Source: Planctomycetota bacterium
GTDB taxonomy: Bacteria > Planctomycetota > UBA1135 > UBA2386
Direction of reading: 5' to 3'
NCBI GenBank assembly: GCA_965223545.1
Contig: OZ245006.1
Location: 2,816,001-2,880,000, forward strand
Length of the DNA: 64,000 nucleotides
Shown one piece after another: positions 13,393 through 51,041 of this stretch. The translations under genes were made by a program, and so were the position numbers. Position 1 is the stretch's first letter. Every line of letters begins with the position of its first letter. The notes under the pieces are model-generated. The model did not search any database. It was not told the origin of the DNA and was given only the letters and a program-made list of their open reading frames with translations.

Positions 13393-14919
13393 CTACTGTC
13401 CGAGCAGGGCCAGGGGGACGGGGCGGCTGGCGTAGACCAGCTGGGTCGCGCCGAGCACTACGTAGGCGTGGTGTAGCGTCACGCCTGCTGCCGCCGGCAG
13501 GGCGGGAAGGGTGAGAGTCGCGGTGGCGGCCGCGGCCGCGGACAGCGTGCCGCGGTGGCCGGCGAAGAACGCGAGCTGCGGCTGCGCGGTGAGCGCCGTG
13601 TAGCTGTCGGCCACCAGGGGGATCGTCACCGCGCCGACCGGAATCGGCGGGCGCGTACCGGAGAGCGACCCGAGCAGCCAGTACGGCCGACCCGCGTGGG
13701 CCGCGGGCGCCGTCAGGGACAATCGCAGGGAGCCGCCGGACGACGACGGCAGCACGGCCCGGTCGCCGGCCAAGTCGACGACACCGGTGTCCACCACAAC
13801 GGCCTCGTCCACTTCCATGGCGACCAACTCCGCCCTGCCATCGCCGTCGCGGTCGGAGATCGAAAAACGCGGCGCAGCGGTCGATCCCGCCAACAGCCAC
13901 AGGGGCACACCGGTCACCGCGCTCTCGACGACGATGCCCGCCGCCGTCGACCGTGCCAGCTCGGGCACGCCATCGCCATCCTGGTCGCCCGCATCGGCGA
14001 CCGCGCCCGGCCACGCGCCGCCAGCCGAGGACGCGGTGCGCAGCACGTTGCCACTAAGGCCCGAGACGACCGCGATCTGCGGCACGGCGACCCCGCCGAA
14101 GTCCGAGGTGACGTAATCCGCGGCGCCGTCGCCATCGACGTCGGCGCGCAGCGGCAGCAGGGAGAACGTCGCCGTCACGGGGCGGCGCGGGGTATGCGTG
14201 GCGCCGGAGTACAGCACTCCCACCGACTGCGATGAGCGCGCGTTGGCCGGGCTCCAGGTCGCATAGTCGGGGATACCGTCCGCGTCGGTATCGCCCATGC
14301 CGGCGACACCGAAGTACTGCACGTCGAACCGCGGCCGCGACCAAGACCGCAGAGTGGTGCCGCTCGCGCCGGCGACGAGGTGAAAGTCGACCGTGTAGCC
14401 CGACGTGGCATCGCCACCGTGCAGTGCGGCACTCCAGTCGCCAACGCCATCGCCATCCAGGTCGCCGACGCCCGCACAGGCGACGACCACCGTCGTCGGC
14501 GACCCCACGACCGATTGCAAGAGACTGCCGTCCACTCCCGAGCGCACTACGGCCCGCGGCGGCTCGCCGAACAACAGATCACCGACTCCGTCACCGTTGA
14601 CGTCGGCGCCGAGCGGCTGGAACGGATGACTGCGGATTCCGGTCAGACTGAGGTGCAAGCGCCCGTCCCGTCCGGAGATCACATGCACGCGATCGCCACC
14701 CCCACCGTGGGTCGCGAGTGGCGCCAGCACGAACTCCCCCACGCCATCGCCATCGAGATCGCCGGCACTGATCACCACCGGCAGCGCCGGGTAGCGCAGC
14801 GACACCTGCTGCGCGCGGAGCGGCGTGACGGCGACGAACGCCAGCGCGGAGGCTCCGCCCAGCGCGAGCGACAGCGGGCGCGCGACTGCGCGACGAAGGC
14901 ACGCATGCGAGTACGTCAT
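13393..14919 (-). CDS. Secreted FG-GAP/integrin-alpha-like repeat protein
   Basis: Signal peptide ending LRA-QQ; repeats GDLDGDGVGE, DVNGDGVGD, GDLDGDGVGD, GDTDADGIPD, DVDGDGAAD, GDQDGDGVPE, DRDGDGRAE; shared C-terminal domain. Confidence 0.88.
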   Translation of the reverse strand: MTYSHACLRRAVARPLSLALGGASALAFVAVTPLRAQQVSLRYPALPVVISAGDLDGDGVGEFVLAPLATHGGGGDRVHVISGRDGRLHLSLTGIRSHPFQPLGADVNGDGVGDLLFGEPPRAVVRSGVDGSLLQSVVGSPTTVVVACAGVGDLDGDGVGDWSAALHGGDATSGYTVDFHLVAGASGTTLRSWSRPRFDVQYFGVAGMGDTDADGIPDYATWSPANARSSQSVGVLYSGATHTPRRPVTATFSLLPLRADVDGDGAADYVTSDFGGVAVPQIAVVSGLSGNVLRTASSAGGAWPGAVADAGDQDGDGVPELARSTAAGIVVESAVTGVPLWLLAGSTAAPRFSISDRDGDGRAELVAMEVDEAVVVDTGVVDLAGDRAVLPSSSGGSLRLSLTAPAAHAGRPYWLLGSLSGTRPPIPVGAVTIPLVADSYTALTAQPQLAFFAGHRGTLSAAAAATATLTLPALPAAAGVTLHHAYVVLGATQLVYASRPVPLALLGQ

Positions 14920-14971
14920 GCCGTCGGGTTGCCCGCGCGCGGCCGGACACTGCGGAACCGGAAAAAGTGCC

Positions 14972-16126
14972 TCACTCGCGGCGCCAATGCGCACCCTCGG
15001 CGTGAGAACGCTCGACGAACACCCAAACCAGCACGCGCGCTTGCAGTGCGCCGTCTGCCCGACGTTGCAGAGCGCGCTCCACCCCGGCCAGCGGACCGCC
15101 GCCGGCGACGACGTCGGCGAAGTCGACGACGCGCCCCAGGAGTCCCGACAACAGGGGCCCGCTCGCCTGCGCGAAGCTGTCGCCGCAGACCGCGACGGTC
15201 GCACTGCCGACCTCCGCCTCGAGCTCGACCGCGACGCGTGCGCCGCCCGCGTCGCGGCGGCCCAGATCCCACGTCGGAACCCGCTCGGTCAACCGCGCGG
15301 CGAGGGATCCACCCGGGAGCAACCCGAGCAGCTGAGTGACGCCACCCTCGCGCGACTGCCAGCGCGACGCAAGCGCGACGAACGGCATCGTCCCACCAGG
15401 CGCCAGCCAACCGCGACGACGGATCTCCGCAGCCACCGCCTGCATCGCCGAGAACTCCCCTTCGGTGCGCCAGTGCGGATCACGGGCGAAGTACAGCGGT
15501 CGCTCCGGTGCGCGTGCGCGCGCACTCTGGAGGTGAGTCGCCAGATCCACGGCGGGGATGCCGGCGGCGGCGAGCTCGTCGAGCATGTCGCCGTAGTGCG
15601 CCGCCCGCGACGCCGGAACGGCGCCATCCCCGGTCAAGCGATCGGCGTAGAGCCGCACCTTGTCCGGCGCCGGCGCGGCGAGCAGGTGCACGCCGAGACC
15701 CGCAGCGCGCGCGGCGAGCTCCGCCAACCGCCGCCGTCGCTCGGGGCCGTCGGCTCGGTATCTGCCCTCGTCCAGCGACATGGTCTCGGCCAGGGCGAGC
15801 CAACGGCCGCGGCCGAAGTGCACGCGGGGATCGTCGCGCGCCCCCCAGCGCACGCGCAGGTCGTTGTGCACGCCGCGCAGCCAGACCGTCAACGGCAGGC
15901 GCTCCCGCCAAGCCCGCCCCAGCGCCGCGGTCCACGAGCCATCGCGAAACGCAGTCCAACTCCAAGCGGGCGCGCGGACCGTGGCGAGCGTGCGCGCCGG
16001 CGCAAGCCAGAACAGGAGCGGGCCCGCGACCAGGGCGGCGAGGAACAGCACCGCGCACAGGCGGCGAGAAAACCGGGACACCACCGACCCCGCGTCATCG
16101 CCCACCCCGCTCCGCTCGGTCGTCAT
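14972..16126 (-). CDS. AlgJ/AlgX-like SGNH O-acyltransferase
   Basis: TM anchor, GRGRWL, APAPDKVRLY, LYFARDPHW (DxH), VCGDSF (Ser); immediately downstream of an AlgI-like MBOAT. Confidence 0.85.
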   Translation of the reverse strand: MTTERSGVGDDAGSVVSRFSRRLCAVLFLAALVAGPLLFWLAPARTLATVRAPAWSWTAFRDGSWTAALGRAWRERLPLTVWLRGVHNDLRVRWGARDDPRVHFGRGRWLALAETMSLDEGRYRADGPERRRRLAELAARAAGLGVHLLAAPAPDKVRLYADRLTGDGAVPASRAAHYGDMLDELAAAGIPAVDLATHLQSARARAPERPLYFARDPHWRTEGEFSAMQAVAAEIRRRGWLAPGGTMPFVALASRWQSREGGVTQLLGLLPGGSLAARLTERVPTWDLGRRDAGGARVAVELEAEVGSATVAVCGDSFAQASGPLLSGLLGRVVDFADVVAGGGPLAGVERALQRRADGALQARVLVWVFVERSHAEGAHWRRE

Positions 16127-16136
16127 CGCGCCGCTC

Positions 16137-17513
16137 TCAGAACTGGGAGTAGATGAACGGGGTGAACTCGCGCGCCGCCAGCTGCGACAGCGCGACGAGG
16201 AAAGCCAACAGCACCCACCAGTCGGTCCACGGTGCGCCCCCGCGCTCGAGGCGCGCCGAGGTCGGCGCACTGAAGACGACGACGACGCCGACGACCAGGG
16301 CGGCGAACGCCTCGAAGCCGAAGCGTTCGGGCCACATCAGTGCGCCCCAGCCATGCAGGCCGCTCAGACCGCCGAAGATCGCCCCCAGACCGTCCAGGCC
16401 ATCGGCTCTGAACACGGCCCAACCGCCGAGCACGATGACGAACGTGGCGCCGACGCGCAGGGGTCGCGGCAGCGCGGCGTACAGCGGACGCTTGCCGGCC
16501 AAGCGCTCGATCACCAAGAACAGTCCTTGGTAGCCCCCCCAGAGCAAGAACGTCCACGCCGCGCCGTGCCACAGCCCGCCGAGCAGCATGGTGAGCATCA
16601 GGTTGCGATAGGTCCGCAGCGCGGTGCCGCGGTTGCCGCCCAGCGAGATGTACAGGTAGTCGCGCAACCAGCTCGAGAGGCTGATGTGCCAGCGGCGCCA
16701 GAACTCGGTGATCGAGTCGGCGCGGTACGGGGCGTTGAAGTTCTCCGGCAGGCGAAAGCCGAGCATCAGGCCCAAGCCGATCGCCATGTCGGAGTAGCCG
16801 GAGAAGTCGAAGTAGATCTGCAGCGCATACGCCAGCACGCCGAGCCACGCCTCGCAGAGACCCGGCGCCGCGGCGGCGAACACCGGGTCGGCGATCAGGG
16901 CCGCGTTGTCAGCCAGCAGGATCTTCTTGGCGAAGCCGATCTCGAACAGCAGCGCCCCTGCCGAGAACTTGGCGAACGTGTGCTGCCGTGCCACCAGGTC
17001 CTGCCGGATGTCGCGAAAGCGCACGATCGGCCCCGCGACCAGCTGCGGAAACATCGACACGTAGCACGCCAAGTCGAGCAGCGAGCGGACCGGTCGCACC
17101 TGGCCGCGGTACACGTCGATCGTGTAGCTCAGCGATTGGAAGGTGTAGAACGAGATGCCGACCGGCAGCACGACGTCCTGCCACTGCAGGTTGCCGCCAA
17201 TCGCGGCCTCGATCGTGTGGACGACCAAGTTGGCGTACTTGAAGTAGGCCAACAGGCCGAGGTTGGTGAGCAACGACAGCAGCAGCCAGCCGCGCCGGCG
17301 CGCGCCCGCCGCCGCGTGCAGATGCCGGGCGCAGACGAAGTCCACCACCGTGCTGATCCACATCAACAGCAGGAAGTCGGGCCGCCACCACGCGTAGAAG
17401 ACGTAGCTCGCCAACGTCAGGGTCGCGTTGCGCCACCGCGCCGGAGTCGCGTAATAGACCGCCAGGGCCAGCGGCAAGAAGGCGAACAGGCAGACGAAGG
17501 AGGAGAAGATCAC
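16137..17513 (-). CDS. MBOAT family O-acyltransferase (AlgI/PatA/DltB-like)
   Basis: LPVGISFYTFQSLSY, FPQLVAGPIVR, QIYFDFSGYSDMAIG, FWRRWHISLSSW, GGLWHGA (catalytic His), FIYSQF. GTG start overlaps the upstream stop. Confidence 0.95.
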   Translation of the reverse strand: MIFSSFVCLFAFLPLALAVYYATPARWRNATLTLASYVFYAWWRPDFLLLMWISTVVDFVCARHLHAAAGARRRGWLLLSLLTNLGLLAYFKYANLVVHTIEAAIGGNLQWQDVVLPVGISFYTFQSLSYTIDVYRGQVRPVRSLLDLACYVSMFPQLVAGPIVRFRDIRQDLVARQHTFAKFSAGALLFEIGFAKKILLADNAALIADPVFAAAAPGLCEAWLGVLAYALQIYFDFSGYSDMAIGLGLMLGFRLPENFNAPYRADSITEFWRRWHISLSSWLRDYLYISLGGNRGTALRTYRNLMLTMLLGGLWHGAAWTFLLWGGYQGLFLVIERLAGKRPLYAALPRPLRVGATFVIVLGGWAVFRADGLDGLGAIFGGLSGLHGWGALMWPERFGFEAFAALVVGVVVVFSAPTSARLERGGAPWTDWWVLLAFLVALSQLAAREFTPFIYSQF

Positions 17514-19162: not shown

Positions 19163-19341
19163 CGCCTCGGGAGCAGACAACGACGGCGAATGATAGCGCT
19201 CGCGAAGTGCCGGGCCGACCACTTCGCAGCGCCCACCGCATCGCCTCCTCGGGCTCCGTTGCCGTGCAACGGCTCAACCGGCCGGCGCCAGCGGGCACTG
19301 TTGCCGCCCGAGACTGCGCGTAGACTCCCGCCGGGCCCCCG

Positions 19342-20793: not shown

Positions 20794-20815
20794 CTGCCTC
20801 GCCGGGCCGCGGCGC

Positions 20816-22102
20816 GTGGTGCTCATCACCGTCGCCATGGCGCTGCTGGCGACCATCGTCGCCCTGGCGCGGGGCCCCGCCGGCGGCGCGTTCGGCGCCG
20901 CGGTCGGTGTGCTGGGTCCCTGGCTCATCGCCGGCTGCCTCGCCCTGTACGGTGTGCTCAGGTGGGGCCTCGCGCCGCGCTTGCAGCGCGCACCGAGCGC
21001 CGCCGAGACAACCCACCAGCTGTGGCTCGCGGGCCGCAACGCGGCCCTCGTGCTCGTCAGCGCTGCTGCCGTATTGGAGACTTGGGAACGGGGGGCGGGC
21101 GACGGGGTGAAGCAGGAAACGTGGATGCTGAGTGGGCCGCCGCTCGGCGGTCCGCACGCATTTCGATTCGACGACGAGCTGGGCTGGGTCGGGCAGCCGC
21201 ACCGCACCACGCACCTACGCACCGGCGACGCGGTGATCTCGTCGACGACGAATGCACACGGCTTCTTCGACATCGACCAAGACATCGACCTCGACGGGCC
21301 ACCGCGCCTGGTGGTGGTCGGCGACTCGTTCGGCCGCGGCTGGGGCGTGCCGATGGAAGAGGCGCTGACGGCGCGCATCCGGGCGGCTCTGCCGCAGTAT
21401 CAGATCGTCTGCCAAGCGGTCGCGGGCTACCGGCTCGACCAGATCGGCCTGGCCTACACGCGCTTCGCCCGGCCGCTGGCACCGCACGCCGTCGTGCTGG
21501 CGGTGATCGCAAGCACCAGCGAGCGCGAGAGCCGTCCGGTGCAGGGGCATGCACGGCCATGGTGCGTTCTTCGCGACGGCGAGCTCTACTGGTACCGCGG
21601 CCCGATTCCCGCGCTCCCCGACGCTCCGGAGGCCCGCATCCGCTACGCCGCGCGCCAGGAGCACGCCGCCGTGGTCTCGGCCGGCGATGCCTGGCACGCT
21701 CTCCTCGCCTGGGTCACACGGCACACCGCGCTGGGCAGTCGCACCCAGCGCGCCCTGCAGTTCCGTTTCGATTCCATCGACCGCCGGGCAGCGCTGGACC
21801 CAGTCACCACCGCCCTGGTCGCCCACCTCGACGCGCAGGTGCGCGCCGACGGCGGCCGGCTGCTCGTCGCGGTCGCGCCACCGTCGTGGGCCACTAGGGC
21901 CAAGTGGGCGACCAACAACATCACCCGCTGGTGCGACGACCTCCGCGCCGCGGCGGGCGCGGAGGTGCTCGACCTCACGCCGGCTCTGGTGCTAGAAGAG
22001 GGCGCCCTCTACACCGAAGGCGCCAACGCCCACCCCAACGCCGCCGGGCACGCCGCCGCAGCGGCAGCGATCGTGCGCGCCCTCGAGACCCGCCAAGACT
22101 GA
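20816..22102 (+). CDS. Membrane SGNH-family protein
   Basis: N-terminal TM helices, DDELGW, TNAHGF, VVVGDSFGRG, C-terminal NAHPNAAGH. Start approximate. Confidence 0.8.
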   Translation: MVLITVAMALLATIVALARGPAGGAFGAAVGVLGPWLIAGCLALYGVLRWGLAPRLQRAPSAAETTHQLWLAGRNAALVLVSAAAVLETWERGAGDGVKQETWMLSGPPLGGPHAFRFDDELGWVGQPHRTTHLRTGDAVISSTTNAHGFFDIDQDIDLDGPPRLVVVGDSFGRGWGVPMEEALTARIRAALPQYQIVCQAVAGYRLDQIGLAYTRFARPLAPHAVVLAVIASTSERESRPVQGHARPWCVLRDGELYWYRGPIPALPDAPEARIRYAARQEHAAVVSAGDAWHALLAWVTRHTALGSRTQRALQFRFDSIDRRAALDPVTTALVAHLDAQVRADGGRLLVAVAPPSWATRAKWATNNITRWCDDLRAAAGAEVLDLTPALVLEEGALYTEGANAHPNAAGHAAAAAAIVRALETRQD

Positions 22103-22103
22103 C

Positions 22104-28142: not shown

Positions 28143-29132
28143 CTACGGGCAGGTCAGCGTCACCACCGGCGTGCTCATCAGCGAGGGGAACGCCGCCGGG
28201 TCATGCAGCAACTGCTGGAAGTGGACCGAGCCCCGTGCGGTCGGCGGCACGGGCAGGTCGAGCACGATCTCGCCATTGCCATCCGACCGGCCCGGCAGCG
28301 CGACCAGCGGCACGACGTTGTAGGTGCACAGCCCGCCGGGCAGCGACACCGGGGACTGCGCCACGCCGATGCCGGTCACCACCGGCGCGTTGGGCCGCAA
28401 CAGCGTGCCGGTCAAGCGCAGGCTGCCTGCGTAGGTCATCTCGCCGCGCAGCATCGGCACCAGCGCGAACGCGCAGCCGCCCTGTCCACCGGTCACCGTA
28501 CATCGCGACTGCGGCGTGACGTCGATCTGCACGTTCGAGAACGCCTGGGTGCGCTGCCCGCCCGTGAGCGGGTAGCGCACGGCGTTGTCGGTGTGGATGC
28601 GCACGGCCAAGCCGGCGGCGGTGAGCACCACCGGCACCGACACGGTGCTCTGCGCGCCGAAGCCCGCGACGAGCTCGAAGCTGCCATCGTCGCCGACGTC
28701 GATCCGCACCAGATGGCGCGCGGTCGCCTGGTTGAGGGCGCTCGCGGAGTGCCGCAGCACCACCGTCGCCGCGGCCGGGGCATTCGCGAAGAGGGTCAGC
28801 AACGTCGTGTGCGGACCGACACTCGCTTGCAGACCCGGAGTCGCGACGTTGCTGGACTCGGTGATCTGCAGCGAGGTTCCGACCGCGGCGTCGTGGCGGA
28901 AGGCGAACGACGAGACCGCGCCGCCGAGGCCCTGGGCCGCCGGCGCGGCGACCGAGAGCCGCGTCGTCTGCGGCGTCAGGTCGGTGCCGGCGGGCAGCGT
29001 GGCGGTGGCGCCGCCGGCGTTGGTGACCAAGGGAGTGGCGGCCACGTAGCGGACCGAGCTCACCTGGGCGGCGGCCGGTGCGGCGACGATCAGGGCGGCG
29101 GCGAGAGTCGTGGACGGAACGAGAGTGTGCAT
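28143..29132 (-). CDS. Secreted hypothetical protein with shared C-terminal domain
   Basis: Signal peptide ending AAA-Q; ends GQGGC...LPVP...VHFQQLLHD...STPVVTLTCP. Confidence 0.75.
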   Translation of the reverse strand: MHTLVPSTTLAAALIVAAPAAAQVSSVRYVAATPLVTNAGGATATLPAGTDLTPQTTRLSVAAPAAQGLGGAVSSFAFRHDAAVGTSLQITESSNVATPGLQASVGPHTTLLTLFANAPAAATVVLRHSASALNQATARHLVRIDVGDDGSFELVAGFGAQSTVSVPVVLTAAGLAVRIHTDNAVRYPLTGGQRTQAFSNVQIDVTPQSRCTVTGGQGGCAFALVPMLRGEMTYAGSLRLTGTLLRPNAPVVTGIGVAQSPVSLPGGLCTYNVVPLVALPGRSDGNGEIVLDLPVPPTARGSVHFQQLLHDPAAFPSLMSTPVVTLTCP

Positions 29133-29306: not shown

Positions 29307-30941
29307 TTGCCGGGGACCCCTCACTCACTGCTCCGCCGCCTGCTGGCGGTCTCCGTCGGACTGACGCTCGGCGTGGCCGCGCTCGAGGCGGCGCTGCGGC
29401 TGGCGGGCATTCCGGCGGTGGTGCCCCCGTTCGCCCTGATCCGCGCCGAGGGGGCGGACGCCAACTTCGAGCCCGACGCCGCACTCTTCTGGCGCTTGCG
29501 CACCGACAGCGCCAAGTACCGCGGGGCGCCGCCGGGAGTCCGCGGCTGGTGGCCGGCGGGGCCGGCGACCGACGGCACGCTGCGCGTCCTCTGCCTCGGC
29601 GACTCCTCGACGTTCGGCGTCGGCGTGCTGTACGAGCACTGCTATGCCCTACGGCTCGAGCAACGGCTGCAACGGGACCGACCACTGCAGCGCGTCGAGT
29701 GCCTGATCGGCGGCCTGCCCGGCCATTCCTCGCACCAGACGCTGCAGCTGTTTCGCCATCACGGCCGACAGCTGGCACCTGACGTCGTCGTCGCCTACCT
29801 CGGTGCGTGGAACGACCACCGCCCGGCGAGCGAGCGCAGCGACGCCGCCTGGTCACGGCATCTCGCCGCGGCGGCCGATCCGTGGGTGCCGCGCATCTGG
29901 CTGGCGGGGGAGCGATTGCGCGGCCGACTGCGCGGAGAAACCGGCCTGCGCGTGCCGCTGGCCGACTTCGTGCACAACCTCGACGCCCTGGTCCGCGACG
30001 CGCGCGCCGCCGGCGCCGCGGTCGTGCTGCTGGTGCCCCCGCTGCACCCGGCGGGGATCGAGGCCAATCCGATCGCCCGCGACTACCGGGCAGCGGTGCG
30101 CGCCCGTGCAGGTCGCGGCGTGACCGTGATCGACGCTGCCGCACTGCTGGAAGACGCGCACACCGCCCTGCCGGCCGCCGCCACTGGCGGCGCCACCGAT
30201 GTGTTCCTCGACTGGGTGCACCCGACGGCGCGGGGTCACGACATGCTGGCAACCGCGCTCGCCGAGGCGATCGACGACCTCACGCCGCCGGCGATCGACG
30301 GCGCGTTCGCGAGCGCGCTCGCCGGCAGCGTCGCACCGACCGCTGTCGACGCCCTCGCACCGGGCACACTCTCGGTGCGCACGGAAGCGCCGGTCGATGA
30401 GCGCACGCGGGTGTGGATCGGCGAGCGCTGGGCAAGCGACGTCACCCGCCAGGGGCCGGAGCTGCGCGTTTCGCTGCCGGCCCTCCTGCTGCCTGGAAAG
30501 CACCTGGTCGAGCTGCGCACCGAACACGGCCCGCATACGGTCGGCCACCTGCGCGTCCGCGCGCCTCCGCTCGAGGTCGAGATCACTGGCGCCGAGGGCG
30601 CGCGTCAAGTCCACCTCAAGTGGTCCGGTCCTGCGGGTTGGCACGCGCTGGCCTGGTTGGCGCCCACGGTACGACCCAGTCCCGCGCAGACTCGATTCGG
30701 CCCCATCCACCTCGACCTGCCATTCGCGCCCGGAGTGCCCCCCATGGTCGAGCTGCCCCCGGCGCCGATCGCGCTAGAGCTGGACGACCGCGGCCACGCC
30801 ACGACGACGCTTCCGTCCGGCGCCAGCACCGGCCAGCTCCACATCCAAGGCGTCCTGCTCTGGCCAGAAGCGCGACGGGTCTCGAGTTGGCCGCAGGCGC
30901 AGCCCGGACTCGCGACAGCCGCGGTGACGGTCACCCTCTGA
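29307..30941 (+). CDS. SGNH/GDSL hydrolase with C-terminal Ig/IPT-like domains
   Basis: TM anchor; LCLGDSSTFG, GLPGHSS, YLGAWND, FLDWVHPTARGH. Confidence 0.85.
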   Translation: MPGTPHSLLRRLLAVSVGLTLGVAALEAALRLAGIPAVVPPFALIRAEGADANFEPDAALFWRLRTDSAKYRGAPPGVRGWWPAGPATDGTLRVLCLGDSSTFGVGVLYEHCYALRLEQRLQRDRPLQRVECLIGGLPGHSSHQTLQLFRHHGRQLAPDVVVAYLGAWNDHRPASERSDAAWSRHLAAAADPWVPRIWLAGERLRGRLRGETGLRVPLADFVHNLDALVRDARAAGAAVVLLVPPLHPAGIEANPIARDYRAAVRARAGRGVTVIDAAALLEDAHTALPAAATGGATDVFLDWVHPTARGHDMLATALAEAIDDLTPPAIDGAFASALAGSVAPTAVDALAPGTLSVRTEAPVDERTRVWIGERWASDVTRQGPELRVSLPALLLPGKHLVELRTEHGPHTVGHLRVRAPPLEVEITGAEGARQVHLKWSGPAGWHALAWLAPTVRPSPAQTRFGPIHLDLPFAPGVPPMVELPPAPIALELDDRGHATTTLPSGASTGQLHIQGVLLWPEARRVSSWPQAQPGLATAAVTVTL

Positions 30942-33351: not shown

Positions 33352-34692
33352 TCACTTGGCGCCGAGGAGCACGGTCCCGCCGGCCGACGCGCCGAGCCCC
33401 CCGATGCCCGACGGGTCGACGACCATTGCCTGAACGTGGAGCTCGGCTCCCGCCAAGGACGCCACCGACGGAATCGGCAAGGCGAGGTTCACGCTGCCCG
33501 CCCCACTGAACCACGGCACGCCGACGTCGGGGCTGACCAACAGCGCGCAGCCGGAGAAACCGAATCGCTGCATCGCCAACGGCAACGACAGCGGGCCCCA
33601 CTGTCGATTGGAGGCGCCGAGCCAGAGGACACCGGGTTGCGCCGCCGGCAGCTGCCCGAGGCGGAGTCGAAACTCCTCGCCGATCCAGGGCAACGCACGC
33701 GGGGCCGGCTGGAGCGTGGGAGTCCCCGCGGTTCCTCCGCAACCGGCGCCAAACGAGCTGTAGTTCGCCGGGTTGACCGGCAGGTACTGCATCGTCATCG
33801 CCGAGTCCGAGGTCCCCACCATCTGTCGGCGGCGCTCGTCGTAGGCCAGTCCCAGATCGCGTCCGATCGAGGATCCCGGCGACAGCACGCCGGGGACCCA
33901 GTCCCCGTCCACCCACTCCCAGACCGAGAATCGGTAGCCGGGTGGCGCGCCCGACGCCTGACCGATGATCATCCGCTGGCGCGCGGTGTCGAAGGCCATC
34001 GCGATGCCCGTGTAGGCGAGCGCGGGCCGCGTCGGCGTCAGCCGCTGAGACCAATCCACGCCATCCCACTCCCAAGTCTGACGCTCTCCGTACAGGACGG
34101 TCCGCCCGCGGCTCGGATCGTACGCCATCGCGTGGCGCGCGGTAAACGACGGCGAAGTCTGCGGGAGTCGCTTGCGCCACTGCTGGCCATCCCATTCCCA
34201 GGTGTCGGACAGGGCCATCCGCTGGCTGTCCAAGCCGCCGAACAGCACGACGCGCTGTCGCAGTGCATCGTACGCCATCGACGCGTAGCGCCGCGGTTGC
34301 GGTCCGGCCGCCGCCACCAGACTCCACGCGCTACCGTCCCACTCCCAGGTCTCGCCACTGTCCCCGTTGCCGTCGAATCCCCCGAAGAGAACGATACGGT
34401 CGCGGTGAGTGTCGGTCACCATCGCGTGCCCGTAGCGGTGGGGTCCGAACGCCACCGTCACCCACGCGCTACCATCCCACAGGTTGGTGAGATTCTGAGG
34501 ACTCCAAACCGCCATGAGGGCACGGCCGCCGTGGCGCAGCACGCGCCCCCCGACCCGATCGTAGGCCATCGCGCCTTCCAACGCCTCCGGACAGCAGGTG
34601 TAGACCGAGGTCCACGTCATCTGGGCCGAAAGCGCGGTGGTGAGCGCGCCGAGCAGAGCCGGACGCAGCACACGAAGGGGGAGGTTCGTCAT
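33352..34692 (-). CDS. Secreted Kelch-like beta-propeller protein with shared C-terminal domain
   Basis: Signal peptide ending LSA-Q; repeats AMAYD...VLFGG...TWEWDG..W. Real start at 34692; the track ORF is 5'-overextended. Confidence 0.88.
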   Translation of the reverse strand: MTNLPLRVLRPALLGALTTALSAQMTWTSVYTCCPEALEGAMAYDRVGGRVLRHGGRALMAVWSPQNLTNLWDGSAWVTVAFGPHRYGHAMVTDTHRDRIVLFGGFDGNGDSGETWEWDGSAWSLVAAAGPQPRRYASMAYDALRQRVVLFGGLDSQRMALSDTWEWDGQQWRKRLPQTSPSFTARHAMAYDPSRGRTVLYGERQTWEWDGVDWSQRLTPTRPALAYTGIAMAFDTARQRMIIGQASGAPPGYRFSVWEWVDGDWVPGVLSPGSSIGRDLGLAYDERRRQMVGTSDSAMTMQYLPVNPANYSSFGAGCGGTAGTPTLQPAPRALPWIGEEFRLRLGQLPAAQPGVLWLGASNRQWGPLSLPLAMQRFGFSGCALLVSPDVGVPWFSGAGSVNLALPIPSVASLAGAELHVQAMVVDPSGIGGLGASAGGTVLLGAK

Positions 34693-36046: not shown

Positions 36047-38317
36047 ATGAATCGCCTATAGCTTCTGGGCGGCCTGATGGCCGCCGTCCTTCCGGTCCAA
36101 GCCCAGGACTCGAGCCGGTCGCAGCCGTCGCCGGAGGCTGCCGCAGCCGAGTGGATGATCCCGCTCCACACCCAGCCCGACGACGTCGATGGCGCCGCTT
36201 ACGGCACCTGGGCTGCCGGCCCCGACTACAAGGCCTCGTTCGACGACGGCTTCACCTTCTACCCGGTGCTCGGCGAGGACTACCCCCGCAACCTCCCCCT
36301 GCGCTGGCGCACCGAGGACATCTCGGCCGGGGGTGTTTCGTTGATCGGGGCCATGCCGGCCGCGTCCCGGCACGCCGCAAACTGGCGCTACGAGCTGCGC
36401 TACGGCACTGTCACCGAGGCCTACGACATCCGCACCGACGGGGTCGAGCAGACCTTCGTCTTGCACCGAGATGCGGGCGGCCACGACGTCGTCGTCACCG
36501 GTCGCATCGACACCGAGCTGCACGGCCAACCGACATCGGCCAGAGTTCAGGCCCTGTCGTTCGCCGACGACGCGGGGCGGCCGATCGTGCGCTACGGCGA
36601 GGCCCTTGCGTTCGACGCTCTCGGTCGAACCATCCCGGTGACGACGAGCTTCGACGGCGAGCGCATCCGGTTGACCGTCGACGGGCGGTGGCTCGACAAC
36701 GCCGCTTTTCCGGTGACGATCGACCCGCTGACTTCGAGCAAACTGATCGCGGTGACGACCGCGTTCGTCAACTACCCGAACGTCGCGCGTGACACCATCA
36801 ACGACCGGCTGATGACGACCTACTCGCGCGCGAGTTCGGGCTCGGACTACGACCTCATCGGCCGTCTACTCACGGACGACTTCAACAACCTCGGCCTGGT
36901 GTTCATGGACATCACGGCCAATTGGAGCACCCGATACGCCTCGGTGGCCTACGCGCGCAGCGCGGACAAGTGGATCATCGCGTTTGGCCGCGAGAACCTG
37001 CCGGGTGCAGGAGTCCGCCTCTACTACCACGATGGCACCAGCACCGCGAGCATGAGCGGAAACACCGTGTTCGTACCGCGACCCGTTGGCTACCAAGACC
37101 AGGTGCCGAGCATCGGTGGCAACGCGACGGACTCGGCCGCGGGTCGCGCTTACCTGGCGTTCCGTCGCGACCAGGGCTCCGGCTCGCCAAACACGATGCA
37201 CTCGCGCATCTACGGCGTGCTGATCGACCCGCAGAACGAAACCCTCGGCCCCGCCAACAACCTGCGCACCAGAGCCGTCTTCACGACCTACGACGCGGAG
37301 GCGCCGTGTGTCACCCCCGACAACGGCGGCCTCGGCGCCTGGATCATCGGCTGGCAAGAGCAGGACCACACCTTCGGGCCAGGCGACGCATGGGACATCT
37401 ACATCCAGCAAGTGCGCGCGTTCGGCCAGATCGGCTTCGAGACCAAGGTGGGCGATCCTGGCGCGACCAATCGGCACAAGCTCCGACCTCAGGTGGCCGG
37501 CTCCGGCGGCAACTTTCTGCTGACGTACTTCACTCGGGACAACGTCCTGCCGTTCAGCGACCTGACCGGTGACGAGATGTTCACCCAGCGCTTCAGCTGG
37601 CCGGATTCATTCGCGAGCCCGACCTACCGCGCCCCACGCTCCTTGGTCGCAGGTCCCGGCAACGGGCTGCGCACCAACGTGACCAACCGAGCAATCGCGT
37701 TCGACGCGGACACCGAATCACACTGGGCGGTGGGCTACCGCACCGTCGCCAACGACTCCTTCGTCGCCCGACTCGGCTGGCGGGGCGGCGTCGTCGAGAG
37801 CGCGGTCGTCTACGCGGACCCCGTCGACGCCGCTGGCTCGTCCGGCCTCTGCTACAACGAAGACGCGCACGAGTTCGCGATCGTGTTCGGCACGCAGCAG
37901 TTCAACCGGCTGCAGGGCCGGCGCTTTCAGTACCAGGCGGCCGCCAACATCGTCTTCGGCCTCTCCTGTGGGCCGTTGACCATCGCCGGCGACAACCGCG
38001 GCAAGTTCGACCAACCGTTCGCCGGCTCGCAGTGGTATCAGGTCACCCTGGATGGTGTGCCCAACCAGCCCGCGGCGCTGTTCCTCGGCCTCAACCGAGG
38101 CAGCACCCCGATCGCCGGCTGCACCCTCTTGATCGACCCCGCTGTCGGGTTCACCCACGTCTTCACCGGCTTGACCAATCCGCTGGGCAAGCTCAGCGTG
38201 CCGGTCGCACTACCGAACTCGATCCTCAGCGCCGATGTCGTATGGCAGTTCTTCCAGTACGACGGCGGCACGGGGCAGACGCTGGCCTCCAACGGGCTGA
38301 TCAGCCAAGTCCGCTGA
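36047..38317 (+). CDS. Large secreted protein with shared C-terminal domain; in-frame TAG at codon 5 (possible pseudogene, or start at 36077)
   Basis: GGAG-N6-ATG AAT CGC CTA TAG CTT CTG GGC GGC CTG ATG is in frame with the 746-aa ORF. Body has GVEQTFVL...FPVTIDP and ends QFFQ...SNGLISQVR. Confidence 0.75.
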
Positions 38318-38350: not shown

Positions 38351-39742
38351 TCAGAAGCCGATGGTGAGCCCGAGGCCGTTGCTGAACTCGAGCGGCCGCC
38401 CGGTGCCTGGGACCGCGGCCTGCGCGGCGAGGTCGGCGCCGAGGAACGCCGGGTCGGGCGGGACACCGATCGCGACGGCACCGGTACCCGCGGCGTCGGC
38501 GACGAACGACTGGATCAGCAGCGGCCCGGTCAAATCTACGTGGACCGGACAGCCGAACAGCGAGAGCGGCACGGCGAGCGGTAGACCGACGGCGACGGCG
38601 ACCGCGGTGCCCGGTGTCGCACCGTCCACCTGCAGGTCGAGCCCGGCGTAGATCAACGGAGCTGCCGCGCGCACCTGCAGTGCCCCGCAGCCGGCGCCCA
38701 GCGCCGTCACGGCCGCAGCCGGCGAGACCGGGTCCAGCCGCAACGCGTGCGGAGCAGTGCCACTGCGCGGATTGCCCGAGCCCGCGATCTGGCCCAGCTC
38801 GTTGACCGCAACGAGCTGGTCGACCTCCCAAGCGGGATCGACGATGCCGTTGGTGGCCGGCGACAGATCGACCAAGCCGCTGGCCGGCGTGTACGCGAAC
38901 GCACCGGAACGGAAGATCGTGGAGGAGCCGATGATGACGTAGTACTGCCAGTTCCCGACGATCAGACCGGCCGCGTTGCGGCCGTTGACCGTCCAACCGT
39001 TGTACTGACCGCTCAGCGTCGGGATCAGAGTCTCGGTGCCGAAGCGATCCCGCACCACGAGGGCGCGGTTGTCGGTGGTGCGGCCGGTAACCGTGCCGTC
39101 GGCCTGCAGGCTTTGCGGCCGAAACGAGAGCGGCACGAACAGGCCGGTGGCTCCCGAGGACCGCAGCCAGTAGCCATAGATGTTGCCGATCTGACCGATG
39201 GCCTCGCCGGCGTCGTTGAGGTCGCACAGGTATCCGGTCACGCCCTGCTGCACCGACTGCATGCCGGCCGCCGGGCTCCACAAGAACGGCTCACCTCCCG
39301 CCGCCAACCCGTTCGCGCTGCCCACGACTTCACCCAGATTGTTCAGACCGCAAGTCGTCCCCCCCGGACTGCTGGAGAGCGGCAGCTGGCCCAGGTCGAC
39401 GAAGCCCTGACCCGGTGTCCGCACGAACATCGAAGTGCCAGCGCTGCCCGCGACCTGGCCCGCATCGTTGATCGTGCTGGCGACGAATCGCCGCGAGTTC
39501 GGCGAGCCGAGATGACGCAGCGCGCCCGTGCGCGGATCGTGCACGTAGGAGACGCGCGGCCACTCGGCGTGCACCAACACCTCGCCGCGGGCGTTGATGT
39601 CGATCGCCGCGCTCGACGGATAGCCCGGGGACCCCAGGTCGACGACCTTGTACAGATACCCCTGCGCGACGAGCGGCGCGCCCAGGACGACTGCGCAAGT
39701 AACCGCCCGGCCGAGCGCGGGGAACGAGGGAGAAGGAATCAT
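38351..39742 (-). CDS. Secreted HAF-repeat/DUF3466-like protein with shared C-terminal domain
   Basis: Signal peptide ending LVA-Q; repeats INARGEV, INDAGQVAG, LNNLGEVVG, LNDAGEAIG, VNELGQIAG. Confidence 0.82.
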   Translation of the reverse strand: MIPSPSFPALGRAVTCAVVLGAPLVAQGYLYKVVDLGSPGYPSSAAIDINARGEVLVHAEWPRVSYVHDPRTGALRHLGSPNSRRFVASTINDAGQVAGSAGTSMFVRTPGQGFVDLGQLPLSSSPGGTTCGLNNLGEVVGSANGLAAGGEPFLWSPAAGMQSVQQGVTGYLCDLNDAGEAIGQIGNIYGYWLRSSGATGLFVPLSFRPQSLQADGTVTGRTTDNRALVVRDRFGTETLIPTLSGQYNGWTVNGRNAAGLIVGNWQYYVIIGSSTIFRSGAFAYTPASGLVDLSPATNGIVDPAWEVDQLVAVNELGQIAGSGNPRSGTAPHALRLDPVSPAAAVTALGAGCGALQVRAAAPLIYAGLDLQVDGATPGTAVAVAVGLPLAVPLSLFGCPVHVDLTGPLLIQSFVADAAGTGAVAIGVPPDPAFLGADLAAQAAVPGTGRPLEFSNGLGLTIGF

Positions 39743-41988: not shown

Positions 41989-43098
41989 ATGCTGCACCGT
42001 CTCTCCCTTGCCGTTGGCGTCGCCGCTCTCGTGGCCGCGCCCCTCGCCGCCCAGAACCGCATCATCCTCCCCGTGGGCTACGCCAACACCGAGGCGCTGT
42101 CGAGCCATTCGTATCCGTTTGGCCGCGGCGGCAACCTGGGCTCCTTCGGCTGCCGGGTGCAGATGGCGTACGACACGGTCTACTTCACCGCGCAGGGCTT
42201 CAGCGCGAACCGACCGATCCAGCGCCTGCGCTGGCGCGCCGACGGCCTCAGCAATCCCAGCAGCTCGGGTGGGCGCTACGACGACGTCATCATCGAGATG
42301 TCCACCGCGGCGGTCGACCACCGGCGCCTGTCGAAGACCTTCGACCAGAACCACGGCGCGGATCGCACCACGGTCTACCGCGGGCCGATCACCCTGCTGC
42401 CCACCGGCACGCAGAGCCCCAACGTTTTCTACATCGACGTCACTCTGGACACGCCGTTCCCCTACGACCCGAGCACCGGCGGAGATTTGCTGATCGACGT
42501 CGGCGTCACCGACACGTGGACCGGCGGGACCGCGGCCCGTACCGACGCCGAGTCCGGTGGCAGCTTCGGCCGCAGCGTGGAGGCTTCGATGGTGATGCAC
42601 CGCTTCCACTACCGCGCCGTCACCGGCGAAGCGGTCCTCAACGACGTCGCCCACGTCGTCACCATCGACTTCGGCGGCGGCGGGCAGGCGACGGTCGGGC
42701 CGTATGGCCAGGGCTGCGGCCCGGCCGGAGCCGTCGCGGTGGACCTCACCTCGATCACCCGGCCGGTGACCGGCACCCGCTTCGACGTGGCCGCGCAGAA
42801 CCTGCCGGCGGGAACCGCCGGCGGCGCGTTCTTCCTGAGCCCGACGCAGGTGGTGCCGGGCCTCGACTTGAGCGCGCTGGGAGCTCCCGGCTGCGTCGCG
42901 TTGGTCGGCCTGGGTGGGGCCGCACAGTTGCCTCTGCAACCCTTGGGGCAGCTCGCGACCGCGAGCTTTCCGGTTCCGGCACTGCCGGCACTGGCAGGGG
43001 TCCGCGTCTTCGTGCAGGCGGCGGCGTTCGTGCCGGGCGTGAACCCGCTCGGAGTGCTGACGAGCAACGGGTTGGACGCGCAGATCGGCACGCTGTAG
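41989..43098 (+). CDS. Secreted hypothetical protein with shared C-terminal domain
   Basis: Signal peptide ending LAA-Q; PFPYDPSTGGDLLID motif; ends YGQGC...GC...VQAA...TSNGLDAQIGTL. Confidence 0.82.
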   Translation: MLHRLSLAVGVAALVAAPLAAQNRIILPVGYANTEALSSHSYPFGRGGNLGSFGCRVQMAYDTVYFTAQGFSANRPIQRLRWRADGLSNPSSSGGRYDDVIIEMSTAAVDHRRLSKTFDQNHGADRTTVYRGPITLLPTGTQSPNVFYIDVTLDTPFPYDPSTGGDLLIDVGVTDTWTGGTAARTDAESGGSFGRSVEASMVMHRFHYRAVTGEAVLNDVAHVVTIDFGGGGQATVGPYGQGCGPAGAVAVDLTSITRPVTGTRFDVAAQNLPAGTAGGAFFLSPTQVVPGLDLSALGAPGCVALVGLGGAAQLPLQPLGQLATASFPVPALPALAGVRVFVQAAAFVPGVNPLGVLTSNGLDAQIGTL

Positions 43099-43120: not shown

Positions 43121-44260
43121 ATGCGCCATCGCCCGACCGCCGCCCTCGGCACCATCCTGCTCGCGTGCTGCCCAGCCGCCCAAACCACGTGGGTCGTCGC
43201 GCCGACCACCGGCGCCGGCGTGCACTTCACATCGATCCAGGCCGCGATCGACGCCGCCGCACACGGCGACACCGTCATTGTCCGAGCGGGCAGCTACAAC
43301 GAGGCGCCAAGCATCGGCAAGGGCATCACGTTGGTCGGCGACGCAGGTGCCACGATCACCTCGTTGTCCCCCATCAACCTCGACGTCGCCGGCGTACCGG
43401 CCGGCACGTCGCTCACGGTGCGCGGCCTCGGCTTCGGCCAAATCAGCCGCATCGCCATCCGCGAGTGCCGCGGGCAAGTTCACCTGGAGCAGATCGCGCA
43501 ACCGGTGACCACGGTGTCCAACGCGTTCTCGATCACCGACTGCGCTCAGGTCACGCTGACGCGATTGAGCGCCATCGGCTTCCCGGCGGTCACGGTCGCC
43601 GACAGCCACGTGGTCCTGACCGACTGCACCGTCGCCGCTGCCGGTTTCTTGACGACCTCGGTTGCGATGCTCGTCGACGGTGGCGAGACCACGGTCGTCG
43701 ACGGCACCTACCGCGGGGGATCCTCAGCTCTGGCGCCCGGCTCTCCCGCCATCGAGCTGCGGCAGGGCGGCCTGGTGCTCGCGGGGTCGAGCACTCTCGT
43801 GCAAGCGGGCGACGACCCTACCGGCGGTGCGGTCTCGGCGATCGGAACACTCGGGGGCAACGTCTCCGTCGACCCAGCGGTGATGCTGCGCACGACGAGC
43901 GGCGCACCGGGGATCGCCGGTGCCGCCTCGGTCGTCGTGCAGCCCGTGCCGTCGGTGGTGGCCGACGATCTACCATCGGGCGGCGACTGGCAGCTCACCC
44001 TGCACGCACCGGCGGGCAGCGCGTTCTGCTTGTTCGCGAGCCTGCCACAGCCTCGCCTCACGTCGCCGTGGGGTGAGGTGTGGTTCTCGCCAGCCACCCA
44101 CTTGGTCATCGCGTGCGGTCTGGTCGGACCCGGCGACGTCTTTGCCGCGAGCGTCCCGGTGCCGCCCCTGCCGCGCGGACTCGCTCTCGTGGCCCAAGCC
44201 GGCGTGGCGACTTCGGGCGCCATCGTCACCAGTGTCCCGGTGGTCACCGCAACCCCTTGA
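43121..44260 (+). CDS. Secreted parallel beta-helix/DUF1565-like protein
   Basis: FTSIQAAIDAAAHGDTVIVRAGSYNE motif; C-terminal domain ending AQAGV...VTSVPVV. Confidence 0.8.
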   Translation: MRHRPTAALGTILLACCPAAQTTWVVAPTTGAGVHFTSIQAAIDAAAHGDTVIVRAGSYNEAPSIGKGITLVGDAGATITSLSPINLDVAGVPAGTSLTVRGLGFGQISRIAIRECRGQVHLEQIAQPVTTVSNAFSITDCAQVTLTRLSAIGFPAVTVADSHVVLTDCTVAAAGFLTTSVAMLVDGGETTVVDGTYRGGSSALAPGSPAIELRQGGLVLAGSSTLVQAGDDPTGGAVSAIGTLGGNVSVDPAVMLRTTSGAPGIAGAASVVVQPVPSVVADDLPSGGDWQLTLHAPAGSAFCLFASLPQPRLTSPWGEVWFSPATHLVIACGLVGPGDVFAASVPVPPLPRGLALVAQAGVATSGAIVTSVPVVTATP

Positions 44261-48841: not shown

Positions 48842-49303
48842 ATGAAATTCACCCTCTCCGTCGCGCTCGCCGCAGCGCTGTTCTGCACCGCACCGCTCGC
48901 CGCCCAGGGCTCCCAAGCCGCGATCGGCGGCGGCTGTCCCAACCGCTCGACGCCAACCGTGTCCGGCAGCCTCACGATCGGCACGACGGCGCGCGTCGAT
49001 GACATCGGCTGCTTCGCCGGTCAGTCCGGCTTCGGCGTGCTGTTCTTCGGCTCGCGGTTGCCGGCGAGCCAGTGGGTGACGGTCACGCTCTCCGCGTCGA
49101 TCACCGGCGCCCAGCCGTGTGACGTCGTCCTGCTTCCCGCAATCGGTGTACCGGTGGGCGCCAGCGGCGCGCTGGCCGTGCCGATCCCCAACAACCCGGC
49201 CCTGCAGGGGGCCCAGGTCAGCCTGCAGGCGTTCTGCAACGAGTGCGGGTTTGCCGGCTGCTTCGACGTCCTGACCCAGGGACTCGAGATCACCATCGGC
49301 TGA
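48842..49303 (+). CDS. Small secreted protein consisting only of the shared C-terminal domain
   Basis: MKFTLSVALAAALFCTAPLAA-Q signal, then IGGGC...PC...VPIPNNPALQGAQVSLQA...TQGLEITIG. GAGG RBS. Confidence 0.82.
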   Translation: MKFTLSVALAAALFCTAPLAAQGSQAAIGGGCPNRSTPTVSGSLTIGTTARVDDIGCFAGQSGFGVLFFGSRLPASQWVTVTLSASITGAQPCDVVLLPAIGVPVGASGALAVPIPNNPALQGAQVSLQAFCNECGFAGCFDVLTQGLEITIG

Positions 49304-49433
49304 TCTTGCGCTGGTGCCGGCGCGATCGACCAGCCGGCACGCGGGCAGGCAGAACAGCTATGCTGGATCTGCCAAGCGTCGCGCGAGACCCAGCGCCGCG
49401 GCCGCGACGGCTCTTCACGACCGAGGAAGGACC

Positions 49434-51041
49434 ATGCCCGCACCCCGAATCTCCGTCCCGATCATCTCGAGCCTACTGCTCTGCAGCGCGGTCGCGGCCC
49501 AGGGAGCCTCCCCGCCCCTCCTCCTGTTCGGGCCGATGACGACGACCGATGCGCACCTGGTCGACCGCAACGGCAACACGGTGCACACGTGGGTCACGCC
49601 CCACCCACCCGGCGTGAGCGTCTACCTCGACCAGGACGGGACGCTGTTGCGCACGATCGCCACCGGTGTCCCTCCCGGCGCCGGCGGCGGTTCCGGCGGC
49701 GGCCTGCAGCGATTGGCGCTCGACGGCACCGTGCTCTGGGACTTCCGCTACGACACCGGCGGAGTCTGGGCACACCACGACATCGAGCCACTGCCCAACG
49801 GCAACGTGCTGATGATCGCGTGGGAGGACAAGACCCCGGCCGAGGCAATCGCAGCCGGGCGCGATCCGGCGAGTCTGTCGACGGTCCCGTTCCGCCCCGA
49901 CCACATCATCGAAGTGCAGCAGACCGGCTTGACCACCGGCACCATCGTCTGGCAGTGGCACGTTTGGGACCACCTGATCCAAGACTTCGATCCGACGAAG
50001 GCGAACTTCGGCGTGGTCGCCGACCACCCGGAGCTCGTCGACATCAACTACCCGCCGGGCGGAAACTCGGGCGACTGGAACCACTGCAACGGCATCGACT
50101 ACGACCCGGTGAACGACTGGATCGTGCTGAGTAGCCGCTTCCAGGAGGAGATCTGGATCATCGACCACTCGACGACCACGGCCGAGGCGGCGGGCCACAC
50201 CGGCGGCAACTACGGCATGGGCGGCGACCTGATCTACCGCTGGGGCAATCCACAGGTGTACCAGCGAGGCACGGCGGCCAACCAGCAGACCTTCGGCCAA
50301 CACTCGTCCAACTTCATCCCACAGGGCTACCCCGGCGCTGGCAACATTCTCTTGTTCAACAACCTGCGCCCGGGCGGCTCGTCGGCGGACGAGCTGGTCC
50401 TGCCGCTGGATGCCAGCGGCAGATTCGTGATCGCGCCCGGCCAACCCTTCGGGCCGTCGACCGCAACGGTGATCCACCAGCTCGGCTACACCAGCCAGAT
50501 CGTGTCCAGCGCCCGCAGGGCGAAGAACGGCAACACCCTGATCTGCGCCGGCCAGCAGGGCAATCTGCTGGAAGTGGACCCGAATGGACGGAGGGTGTTC
50601 GCGCTCAACTACGGCCAGCCCATCTTCCACGCGCACTACGTCGAGCGCATGGCGTGGAGCGATCGCGCGTCGGTGTCGGCCAACGCCGGCGGCAGTGTGA
50701 ACTTCGATCTGATCGCCGGCACCGGGCACGCGGCGCGGCTCTACCTGATGCTGGGCTCCGCGTCCGGCACACAGCCCGGGTTCTCGATCCACGGCCAACC
50801 CGTTCCCCTCGTGCCGGACTCGTACCTGCTCGCCAGCGCCACCTACGCCAACAGCGGAGCGTTCGGCGGAACGCTCGGCACGCTCGACGGCTTCGGCCGC
50901 GCCCGCTCGACGCTCACCGTGCCAAGCGGCCTGCCAGCGCTGGTCGGGCTGCACCTCGACCACGCCTTCTTGATCGTCGAACCGACGACCATCCGTGTGC
51001 TGCAGGCGACCAATGCGGTGCCCCTCGACCTGACCCAGTAG
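49434..51041 (+). CDS. Aryl-sulfate sulfotransferase (ASST)-family protein with shared C-terminal domain
   Basis: HHDIEPLPNGNVLMI, WQWHVWDH, DWNHCNGIDY, LIYRWGNP, QH, ILLFNN; signal peptide. Confidence 0.88.
   Translation: MPAPRISVPIISSLLLCSAVAAQGASPPLLLFGPMTTTDAHLVDRNGNTVHTWVTPHPPGVSVYLDQDGTLLRTIATGVPPGAGGGSGGGLQRLALDGTVLWDFRYDTGGVWAHHDIEPLPNGNVLMIAWEDKTPAEAIAAGRDPASLSTVPFRPDHIIEVQQTGLTTGTIVWQWHVWDHLIQDFDPTKANFGVVADHPELVDINYPPGGNSGDWNHCNGIDYDPVNDWIVLSSRFQEEIWIIDHSTTTAEAAGHTGGNYGMGGDLIYRWGNPQVYQRGTAANQQTFGQHSSNFIPQGYPGAGNILLFNNLRPGGSSADELVLPLDASGRFVIAPGQPFGPSTATVIHQLGYTSQIVSSARRAKNGNTLICAGQQGNLLEVDPNGRRVFALNYGQPIFHAHYVERMAWSDRASVSANAGGSVNFDLIAGTGHAARLYLMLGSASGTQPGFSIHGQPVPLVPDSYLLASATYANSGAFGGTLGTLDGFGRARSTLTVPSGLPALVGLHLDHAFLIVEPTTIRVLQATNAVPLDLTQ

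Follow-up and report, generated by a model that had tools for sequence, protein, structure and literature searches.

An uncatalogued domain on hundreds of exported proteins in one branch of Planctomycetota, with a putative role in surface docking

We analysed a 64,000-nucleotide stretch of DNA (the window) from a Planctomycetota bacterium (assembly GCA_965223545.1, contig OZ245006.1, positions 2,816,001 to 2,880,000), in which an earlier note, made from the letters alone, had pointed to approximately ten otherwise unrelated exported proteins that end in a similar module. The shared tail is one real, uncatalogued and very large domain family. On homologous cargo it trades places with type IX secretion system (T9SS) tails, with dockerins and with lipoprotein anchors, most clearly on a protein of the family PF28492. 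We lean towards the view that it is an anchor module by which exported cargo is docked on the cell surface.

A domain family shared by unrelated proteins

All ten open reading frames (ORFs) of the earlier note and the tail motifs it quoted are present in the window, and nine of the ten proteins carry one shared domain of approximately 125 residues on unrelated cargo parts (Table 1; window proteins are named by their first position). For the tenth, 29307, membership is unproven. Single tails matched each other mostly weakly (13393 and the arylsulfotransferase (ASST) family protein, E = 3e-22; the Kelch protein and 48842, 3e-7; most others, >1e-3), the Kelch tail also matching that of 41989 better than most such pairs. 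Profiles built from the tails recovered eight of the ten proteins (E = 9e-32 to 1e-12 for the tails termed type B and approximately 1e-42 for type A). Of the two proteins held to end in weaker versions, 43121 was recovered at E = 1.9e-6 (1e-15 with a divergent-type model), whereas 29307 remained marginal, at E = 0.004 only. The proposed separation into types A and B did not stand, as the two align by hhalign (95.2% probability, E = 2.8e-8) and form one family, and the ‘DRA’ motif given for type A is not conserved across 20 aligned type A domains. A cysteine-rich form from other genomes aligns to the domain at 73%.

Iterated profiles matched 340 of all 69,417 six-frame ORFs of the source genome (G000; 8.1 Mb, 91% complete, 5,887 genes by our own gene calling). 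The reversed-sequence control gave no match among 69,417 ORFs, and reversed tails gave none at the inclusion thresholds (best E = 0.032). In the gene set, refined models identified 358 type B and 29 type A carriers (387 in all), and a search of the protein tails for divergent forms raised the count to 442 genes; several more look-alike tails in this genome stay below threshold. Mean column identity across the paralogues is 25%, and the most conserved positions are a Gln (94%), a Pro (90%) and three Gly (84–88%).

No Pfam-A or NCBIfam 20.0 match lies on the domain in the ten window proteins, nor any Pfam match on the tail in 80 chosen G000 carriers. A PDB sequence search with the domain returned nothing at E values up to 1, 30 ESM Atlas neighbours have no Pfam 38.1 family in common and newer precomputed Pfam labels on carriers name the cargo family only. 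The literature searched (titles and abstract openings, without supplements or subscription journals) held no description of the domain and, for the terms searched, the available text of bioRxiv 10.1101/817700 makes no mention of one. The family is thus nameless in the catalogues searched at a size of 37,010 representatives in a library clustered at 50% identity (E of 0.001; 15,362 at 1e-10).

Architecture and cargo

Carriers in G000 have one copy of the domain and never more. The module had been described as C-terminal, which holds for most copies but not strictly: the domain ends ≤20 residues from the C terminus in 346 of 387 carriers, and more than 20 residues follow it in the remaining 41 (21–60 residues in 26, >60 in 15). 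More than 100 residues follow the domain in 14 G000 proteins and in six of the top 150 public matches. Approximately 11 G000 genes, counted by eye and including 48842, encode a signal peptide and the domain alone, and such stand-alone forms also occur in public data.

The cargo is diverse, as proposed, with 360 cargo regions grouping into 116 clusters, and most carriers have a predicted signal peptide. Our own loose rule called a signal peptide in 305 of the 358 type B carriers and in all but one of the 29 of type A; the same rule was positive for 1,922 of 4,700 other proteins (41%) and for 16 of 145 P-loop proteins. Among the 80 chosen carriers, Pfam identified Kelch, FG-GAP, RCC1 and BNR propellers, peptidases (M14, M43, S8 and S15), peptidylarginine deiminase, CotH, sulfatase, amidase, beta-lactamase-like proteins and cytochrome c peroxidase. 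Consistent with the proposal that the signal peptides are mostly cleaved before Gln, Ala-Gln cleavage was called in 214 of 358 type B carriers, compared with 470 of the 4,700 other proteins. Across the heuristic calls, cleavage precedes Gln in 77% of carriers and 27% of other proteins, although the heuristic itself prefers Gln; the pattern is genome-wide in G000 and recalls the Bacteroidetes Q-rule. A search of G000 for the PF05096 type of glutaminyl cyclase, one of two cyclase types, found none.

Predicted structure and composition

AlphaFold models of a type B copy (the Kelch protein; pLDDT 97) and a type A copy (the ASST; pLDDT 94) are confident beta-sandwiches. The type B model is an immunoglobulin (Ig)-like sandwich with eight listed strands. 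The best structural matches are macroglobulin-type domains (Z of 8–9.2, r.m.s.d. of approximately 3 Å over 106–112 residues, identity of 9–16%), which outscore generic Ig and fibronectin-type folds by approximately 1 Z unit. The likeness to the macroglobulin (MG) domains of alpha-2-macroglobulin, TEP1 and complement is one of fold only, with no functional link shown. No T9SS tail or cohesin chain is among the structural matches listed. Lipid-binding ML/NPC2 folds, which appeared in Foldseek, were rejected given an r.m.s.d. of 8–13 Å.

Charged residues make up 8% of the domain, 17% of the cargo and 22–24% of other proteins; the domain is hydrophobic (grand average of hydropathy (GRAVY), +0.49) and has almost no lysine. 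Both cysteines are present in 190 of 294 domains, neither in 92 and only one in 12. That the two co-occur or are both missing implies a disulfide, probably in approximately two thirds of type B copies.

A domain of this composition might self-assemble into an S-layer-like lattice, in which the stand-alone copies would be filler and the cargo would point outward. Stand-alone proteins in the window (48842) and in public data, the uncharged and hydrophobic character of the domain and a weak match to the Deinococcus HPI S-layer chain, second in Foldseek (TM-score 0.41, r.m.s.d. 6.3), are compatible with this explanation. We nonetheless regard it as improbable: the low column identity among paralogues is hard to square with a regular lattice, no G000 protein bears more than one copy and codon use points to no dominant, highly expressed subunit (4 of 434 carriers rank in the top 5%, in a genome in which codon bias is weak).

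Exchange with other tails and anchors

The slot occupied by the domain is filled by other devices in homologues of its cargo. Among 78 loci related to the window ASST, 72 have tails that are long enough to scan, of which 27 are T9SS type A tails, three are this domain and one is a Solibacter C-terminal domain (Soli_cterm). One ASST tail is dockerin-like, just below the Pfam cut-off; its source genome has 39 matches to dockerin but no match to the domain. Across 80 genomes, all five that have at least 12 dockerin matches are without the domain, and the 34 domain-rich ones hold 0–4 dockerin matches.

The exchange is clearest for the most conserved carrier shared with a distant carrier genome (G177), a PF28492 protein (66% identity; G000 C1:4672417), the gene of which shares an operon with a TonB-dependent receptor (Pfam-confirmed in G177) and, by inspection, with ExbB/ExbD/TonB-like genes. 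By their tails, the 120 best homologues divide into 85 with this domain, 11 with divergent forms of it, eight with dockerin-like tails, seven with an unrelated tail of 90 residues, three with short W-x-Y/F-type ends and six with no such tail; all classes other than the 85 were assigned by eye, and three of the eight dockerin-like tails have sub-cut-off NF041540 matches. By inspection, more remote homologues (40–43% identity over approximately half the length) from two Bacteroidota and from one planctomycete without the domain are lipoproteins, and two of them directly precede a receptor-like gene. A protein that occurs naturally with a lipid anchor, a dockerin or the domain is well suited to a swap experiment.

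Lipid anchors also appear as counterparts within G000. In two cargo families the domain stands in front of a region, and the paralogues of that region are by inspection lipoproteins that start with a lipoprotein signal and Ig-like spacers (Table 1). Lipoprotein signals are rare in carriers themselves: a strict rule, which is biased against carriers, found 0 of 438 compared with 137 of 2,013 other proteins, and a looser rule found two carriers compared with 49 others.

Further tails were seen on the same cargo. The unrelated tail of approximately 90 residues that replaces the domain on the PF28492 protein (P0242, P0243, P0177, P0194, P0197, P0225 and P0269; L308, L314 and L316) occurs in three domain-rich genomes too. 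Other lineage-specific tails on the same cargo families, with no or weak NCBIfam matches, have F-Y-R-I/V-like ends, hydrophobic basic ends or short W-x-x-Y/F ends (L114, L134, L150, L155 and L095 from Verrucomicrobiota; L085, L086 and L088 from archaea; P0153–P0155).

Docking, secretion or tethering

On sequence evidence, we consider it somewhat probable that the domain is an uncleaved anchor module that docks exported cargo at the surface by means of a lineage-specific partner, type II secretion being the likely export route. The carrier would be exported by Sec and lose its signal peptide, usually before a Gln as predicted, and would then fold in the periplasm, where the cysteine pair may form its disulfide. 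It would cross the outer membrane, most plausibly through one of the type II-type secretins of G000, and be retained non-covalently by the uncharged, hydrophobic surface of the domain on an outer-membrane protein or a surface glycolipid. The domain would stay on the mature protein, leaving hundreds of exported enzymes and propeller proteins docked on the cell surface.

Three observations favour surface attachment: the exchange of the domain with lipoprotein anchors and dockerins, its occurrence at the N terminus and on its own, and the failure to find a T9SS translocon in the carriers searched. The devices that it replaces all hold a protein at the envelope; directing secretion as well is peculiar to T9SS tails. 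Copies that are N-terminal or stand alone suggest a retained binding module rather than a cleaved terminal signal, although this argument is not decisive, because T9SS tails tolerate C-terminal extension and some are uncleaved, according to the available text of PMC11285876. Thus, of the roles previously offered for the domain (secretion, surface attachment or lattice formation), attachment gains from the anchor exchange and a cleaved secretion signal has become less likely.

The domain could instead be mainly a folded secretion signal comparable to the T9SS tail, which a type II-type or other translocon would recognize in the periplasm and which might then be removed; the two readings are not mutually exclusive. 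A signal would explain why the domain sits in the T9SS-tail slot on ASST homologues, as a single and mostly terminal copy, and its cargo includes M14, M43 and S8 peptidases, peptidylarginine deiminase, CotH, BNR, FG-GAP and Kelch proteins. Candidate translocons exist, as G000 encodes six secretins and two type II-like pseudopilin operons. One of these operons (G000 C1:1835390-1853714; locus L175 in G177) has no secretin and encodes a 1,751-residue GspK-like protein, found in 51 of 80 Planctomycetota genomes searched; its G177 orthologue has no Pfam match, and the GspK-like region has no usable ESM Atlas match. At a second locus (G000 C1:7078860-7090901; 66 of the 80 genomes), two large secretins flank tetratricopeptide repeat (TPR) proteins and ExbB/ExbD-like genes, an arrangement that could be a motor-driven secretin system. 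SprA (TIGR04189) was not found in G000 or three other carriers (G157, G033 and G105), with two of two Bacteroidota controls positive, and the PorU-type C25 peptidase (PF01364), which would cleave such a tail, was not found in G000, G157 or G105, with one 580-residue frame in G033 and both controls positive. A secretion signal also fits poorly with the recurrent N-terminal and stand-alone forms and with exchange for dockerins and lipid anchors, neither of which is a secretion signal. We therefore judge it unlikely, though still a serious contender.

The docking reading itself faces several points that weigh against it. The strong C-terminal bias and the T9SS-tail exchange fit a secretion signal equally well. 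Neither operon behaves as a dedicated partner: both are near-universal in domain-rich genomes (32 of 33 each), but neither is specific. Among 40 domain-less genomes, 15 have the GspK-like protein and 28 the twin-secretin/ExbBD operon, which was profiled through one of its secretins. Because they are common in domain-less genomes too, we view them as plausible routes rather than dedicated partners, which also tells against a secretion signal read by either. Cohesin (PF00963) was not found in G000 (two control genomes positive), and no scaffoldin-like repeat protein was evident among the listed G000 exported proteins of at least 700 residues. When 2,081 exported-looking G000 proteins were compared with 2.30 Mb of G177, 264 reciprocal best hits were obtained, of which 211 had ≤1 membrane segment and 155 were Pfam-scanned; no plausible receptor appeared among the inspected candidates without Pfam match, in a screen that excluded signal-less, multi-pass and fast-evolving proteins. 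Surface location and retention are deduced from cargo type alone, and the signal-peptide calls come from a rule that, as noted above, is loose. Finally, two true-looking lipoproteins carry the domain, and 92 domain-less cargo paralogues include just three lipoproteins by the strict rule, most being simply tail-less.

A tether inside the envelope, whether to peptidoglycan, to the outer membrane on its inner side or to a scaffold in the periplasm, would agree with the failure to find a dedicated exporter, with cargo that can be periplasmic (di-haem cytochrome c peroxidase and PQQ/GSDH-type propellers) and with lipoprotein counterparts, which could face the periplasm. We give it a slim chance. 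The ASST homologues of Bacteroidota and relatives are secreted, given their T9SS tails, adhesin-like or polymer-degrading proteins make up much of the cargo and the dockerin counterparts have been proposed at the outer surface in the available text of PMC6461901, itself a hypothesis.

A wider possibility, which we put forward tentatively, is a general surface-display system in one Planctomycetota branch (at least 16 sampled family-level groups), unrelated to T9SS, sortases and cohesin–dockerin pairs, in which one beta-sandwich module on up to 7% of genes may clip the entire exoproteome to a receptor or glycolipid of the outer membrane and take the place of a lipid anchor. That the domain belongs to a system is something we infer, because the machinery was not identified.

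Distribution across genomes

The domain is restricted to part of the phylum, as expected of a lineage-specific module. With 14 candidates scored, at least ten of them matched in 55 of 301 Planctomycetota genomes, one in five genomes and none in 241, and the listed families were nearly all-or-none. Among 50 titled genomes, only two unclassified Planctomycetota were domain-rich; five Planctomycetia and four Phycisphaerae had none, and three genomes of other phyla had 1–2 matches. Separately, a genome titled Phycisphaerales (G303, the source of L103) has 20 matches, compared with none in the four other Phycisphaerae records; mislabelling, contamination and transfer are options. The class rich in the domain may be akin to the OM190/UBA1135-related groups, and cultured members of the Saltatorellus/Engelhardtia group may carry the domain. 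In two single-copy genomes (G187 and G220), a cytochrome c peroxidase has an internal degenerate domain and an extra tail of approximately 310 residues, which we rejected as a rival lineage-wide tag because it has just 1–2 matches per genome. The domain marks approximately 7% of the genes of its hosts. It can serve directly as a marker of the probable surface proteome in little-studied Planctomycetota.

The window proteins and their surroundings

Table 1 Carriers in the window and families of G000 with the domain in front
Feature	Position	Domain	Remarks
FG-GAP repeat protein, signal peptide	13393..14919 (-)	Type A, 13396-13788	Pfam FG-GAP; E 6.8e-42
Exported protein	28143..29132 (-)	Type B, 28146-28508	Cargo without Pfam/NCBIfam match; E 3.5e-15
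GDSL-like hydrolase	29307..30941 (+)	Tail marginally domain-like	PF13472; E 0.0037; membership unproven
Kelch-repeat protein	33352..34692 (-)	Type B, 33355-33768	Pfam Kelch; E 9.2e-32
Exported-type protein	36047..38317 (+), open frame from 36077	Type B, 37940-38314	E 2.8e-19
HAF-repeat protein	38351..39742 (-)	Type B, 38354-38716	TIGR02913; E 8.6e-21
Exported protein	41989..43098 (+)	Type B, 42688-43095	Unassigned cargo family with relatives in G177; E 7.1e-22
Exported protein	43121..44260 (+)	Divergent, cysteine-less, ~43943-44257	Weak pectin-lyase-like matches; E 1.9e-6, 9.8e-16 (divergent-type model)
Stand-alone form, no cargo	48842..49303 (+)	48908-49300	21-residue signal peptide; E 1.2e-12
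ASST family protein	49434..51041 (+)	Type A, 50640-51038	PF05935; E 2.5e-42
Domain-in-front family 1 (G000)	8009385	N-terminal	Lipoproteins 4277182, 5777335, 7167276
Domain-in-front family 2 (G000)	4938098, 4934992	N-terminal	Lipoproteins 354937, 357581

Some of the ten proteins show further features. By inspection, 29307 has a hydrophobic anchor segment at its N terminus; the pectin-lyase-like NCBIfam matches of 43121 are below cut-off; and the ESM Atlas neighbours of 48842 are Planctomycetota proteins of 141–168 amino acids. The 36047 gene has an in-frame TAG at 36059-36061 (codon 5, within the signal peptide), which is probably a real nonsense change and not an assembly error, because the same letters are found in contigs from three runs of one study.

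The run of domain genes is broken up by three transposase-like genes, recognized by inspection (11934-13316, 40022-41830 and 44496-45998). Between and among the carriers (14972-22352 and 29307-30941) lie what we take, by inspection, to be two MBOAT-type acyltransferase genes, SGNH/GDSL-like partners and a small acyl-carrier-like gene; on the same basis, the MBOAT/SGNH genes could be a surface-polymer acylation cluster. At 55944-59716, a 63-residue leader-like peptide gene stands beside a peptidase-containing ABC exporter gene and an HlyD-type gene, by inspection a possible bacteriocin or ribosomally synthesized and post-translationally modified peptide (RiPP) export locus.

Comparison with known systems

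The C-terminal suffixes PEP-CTERM, GlyGly-CTERM and LPXTG resemble the domain in their many-to-one use on unrelated exported proteins. Such signals combine a motif with a transmembrane helix and a basic cluster, as described in the available text of PMC3237569. The analogy with PEP-CTERM drawn in the earlier note fails on this architecture: the module is a folded domain. Of 335 cases, one has a transmembrane-like window and 34 have at least two Lys or Arg in the last six residues. The Solibacter C-terminal domain (TIGR03437) of Acidobacteriota is likewise a lineage-restricted paralogous tail found in the same slot on an ASST homologue, but its model has 225 positions and no NCBIfam match links it to this domain.

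The analogy with T9SS tails fared better, in part. The type A C-terminal domain (CTD) of Bacteroidota and relatives (TIGR04183, Por_Secre_tail) is a seven-stranded Ig-like beta-sandwich, a fold like that predicted here, and likewise ends hundreds of signal-peptide proteins; the cargo overlaps, and on ASST homologues the two occupy the same position. Both groups often show cleavage before Gln, although the available text of PMC5837995 indicates that a Gln after the cleavage site does not control T9SS targeting. T9SS CTDs have 67–108 residues in the available text of PMC11285876, compared with approximately 125 here. They also have a conserved lysine in the last strand, whereas this domain has almost no lysine. 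It differs further in its cysteine pair, its N-terminal and stand-alone forms and its occurrence where SprA was not found. Neither TIGR04183 nor the Pfam T9SS tail model matched the ten window proteins, the Pfam model matched none of the 80 G000 carriers and TIGR04183 had no match in G000; the NCBIfam model itself worked, as it scored the 27 ASST tails.

Dockerins have a fold that is a calcium-binding helical repeat, whereas this domain is a beta-sandwich. The type I (PF00404) and GC-type (NF041540) dockerins of other Planctomycetota, the subject of the ‘planctosome’ hypothesis in the available text of PMC6461901, are similarly small modules on diverse exported enzymes; they trade places with the domain on the same cargo, and high-copy use of the two is mutually exclusive across the genomes searched. 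G000 has no PF00404 or cohesin match, and carriers have no Pfam or NCBIfam dockerin match. The domain works like a T9SS tail or a dockerin but belongs to neither family. Should the anchor reading be right, diderm cells would have, besides T9SS, dockerins and surface lipoproteins, one more independent means of displaying enzymes.

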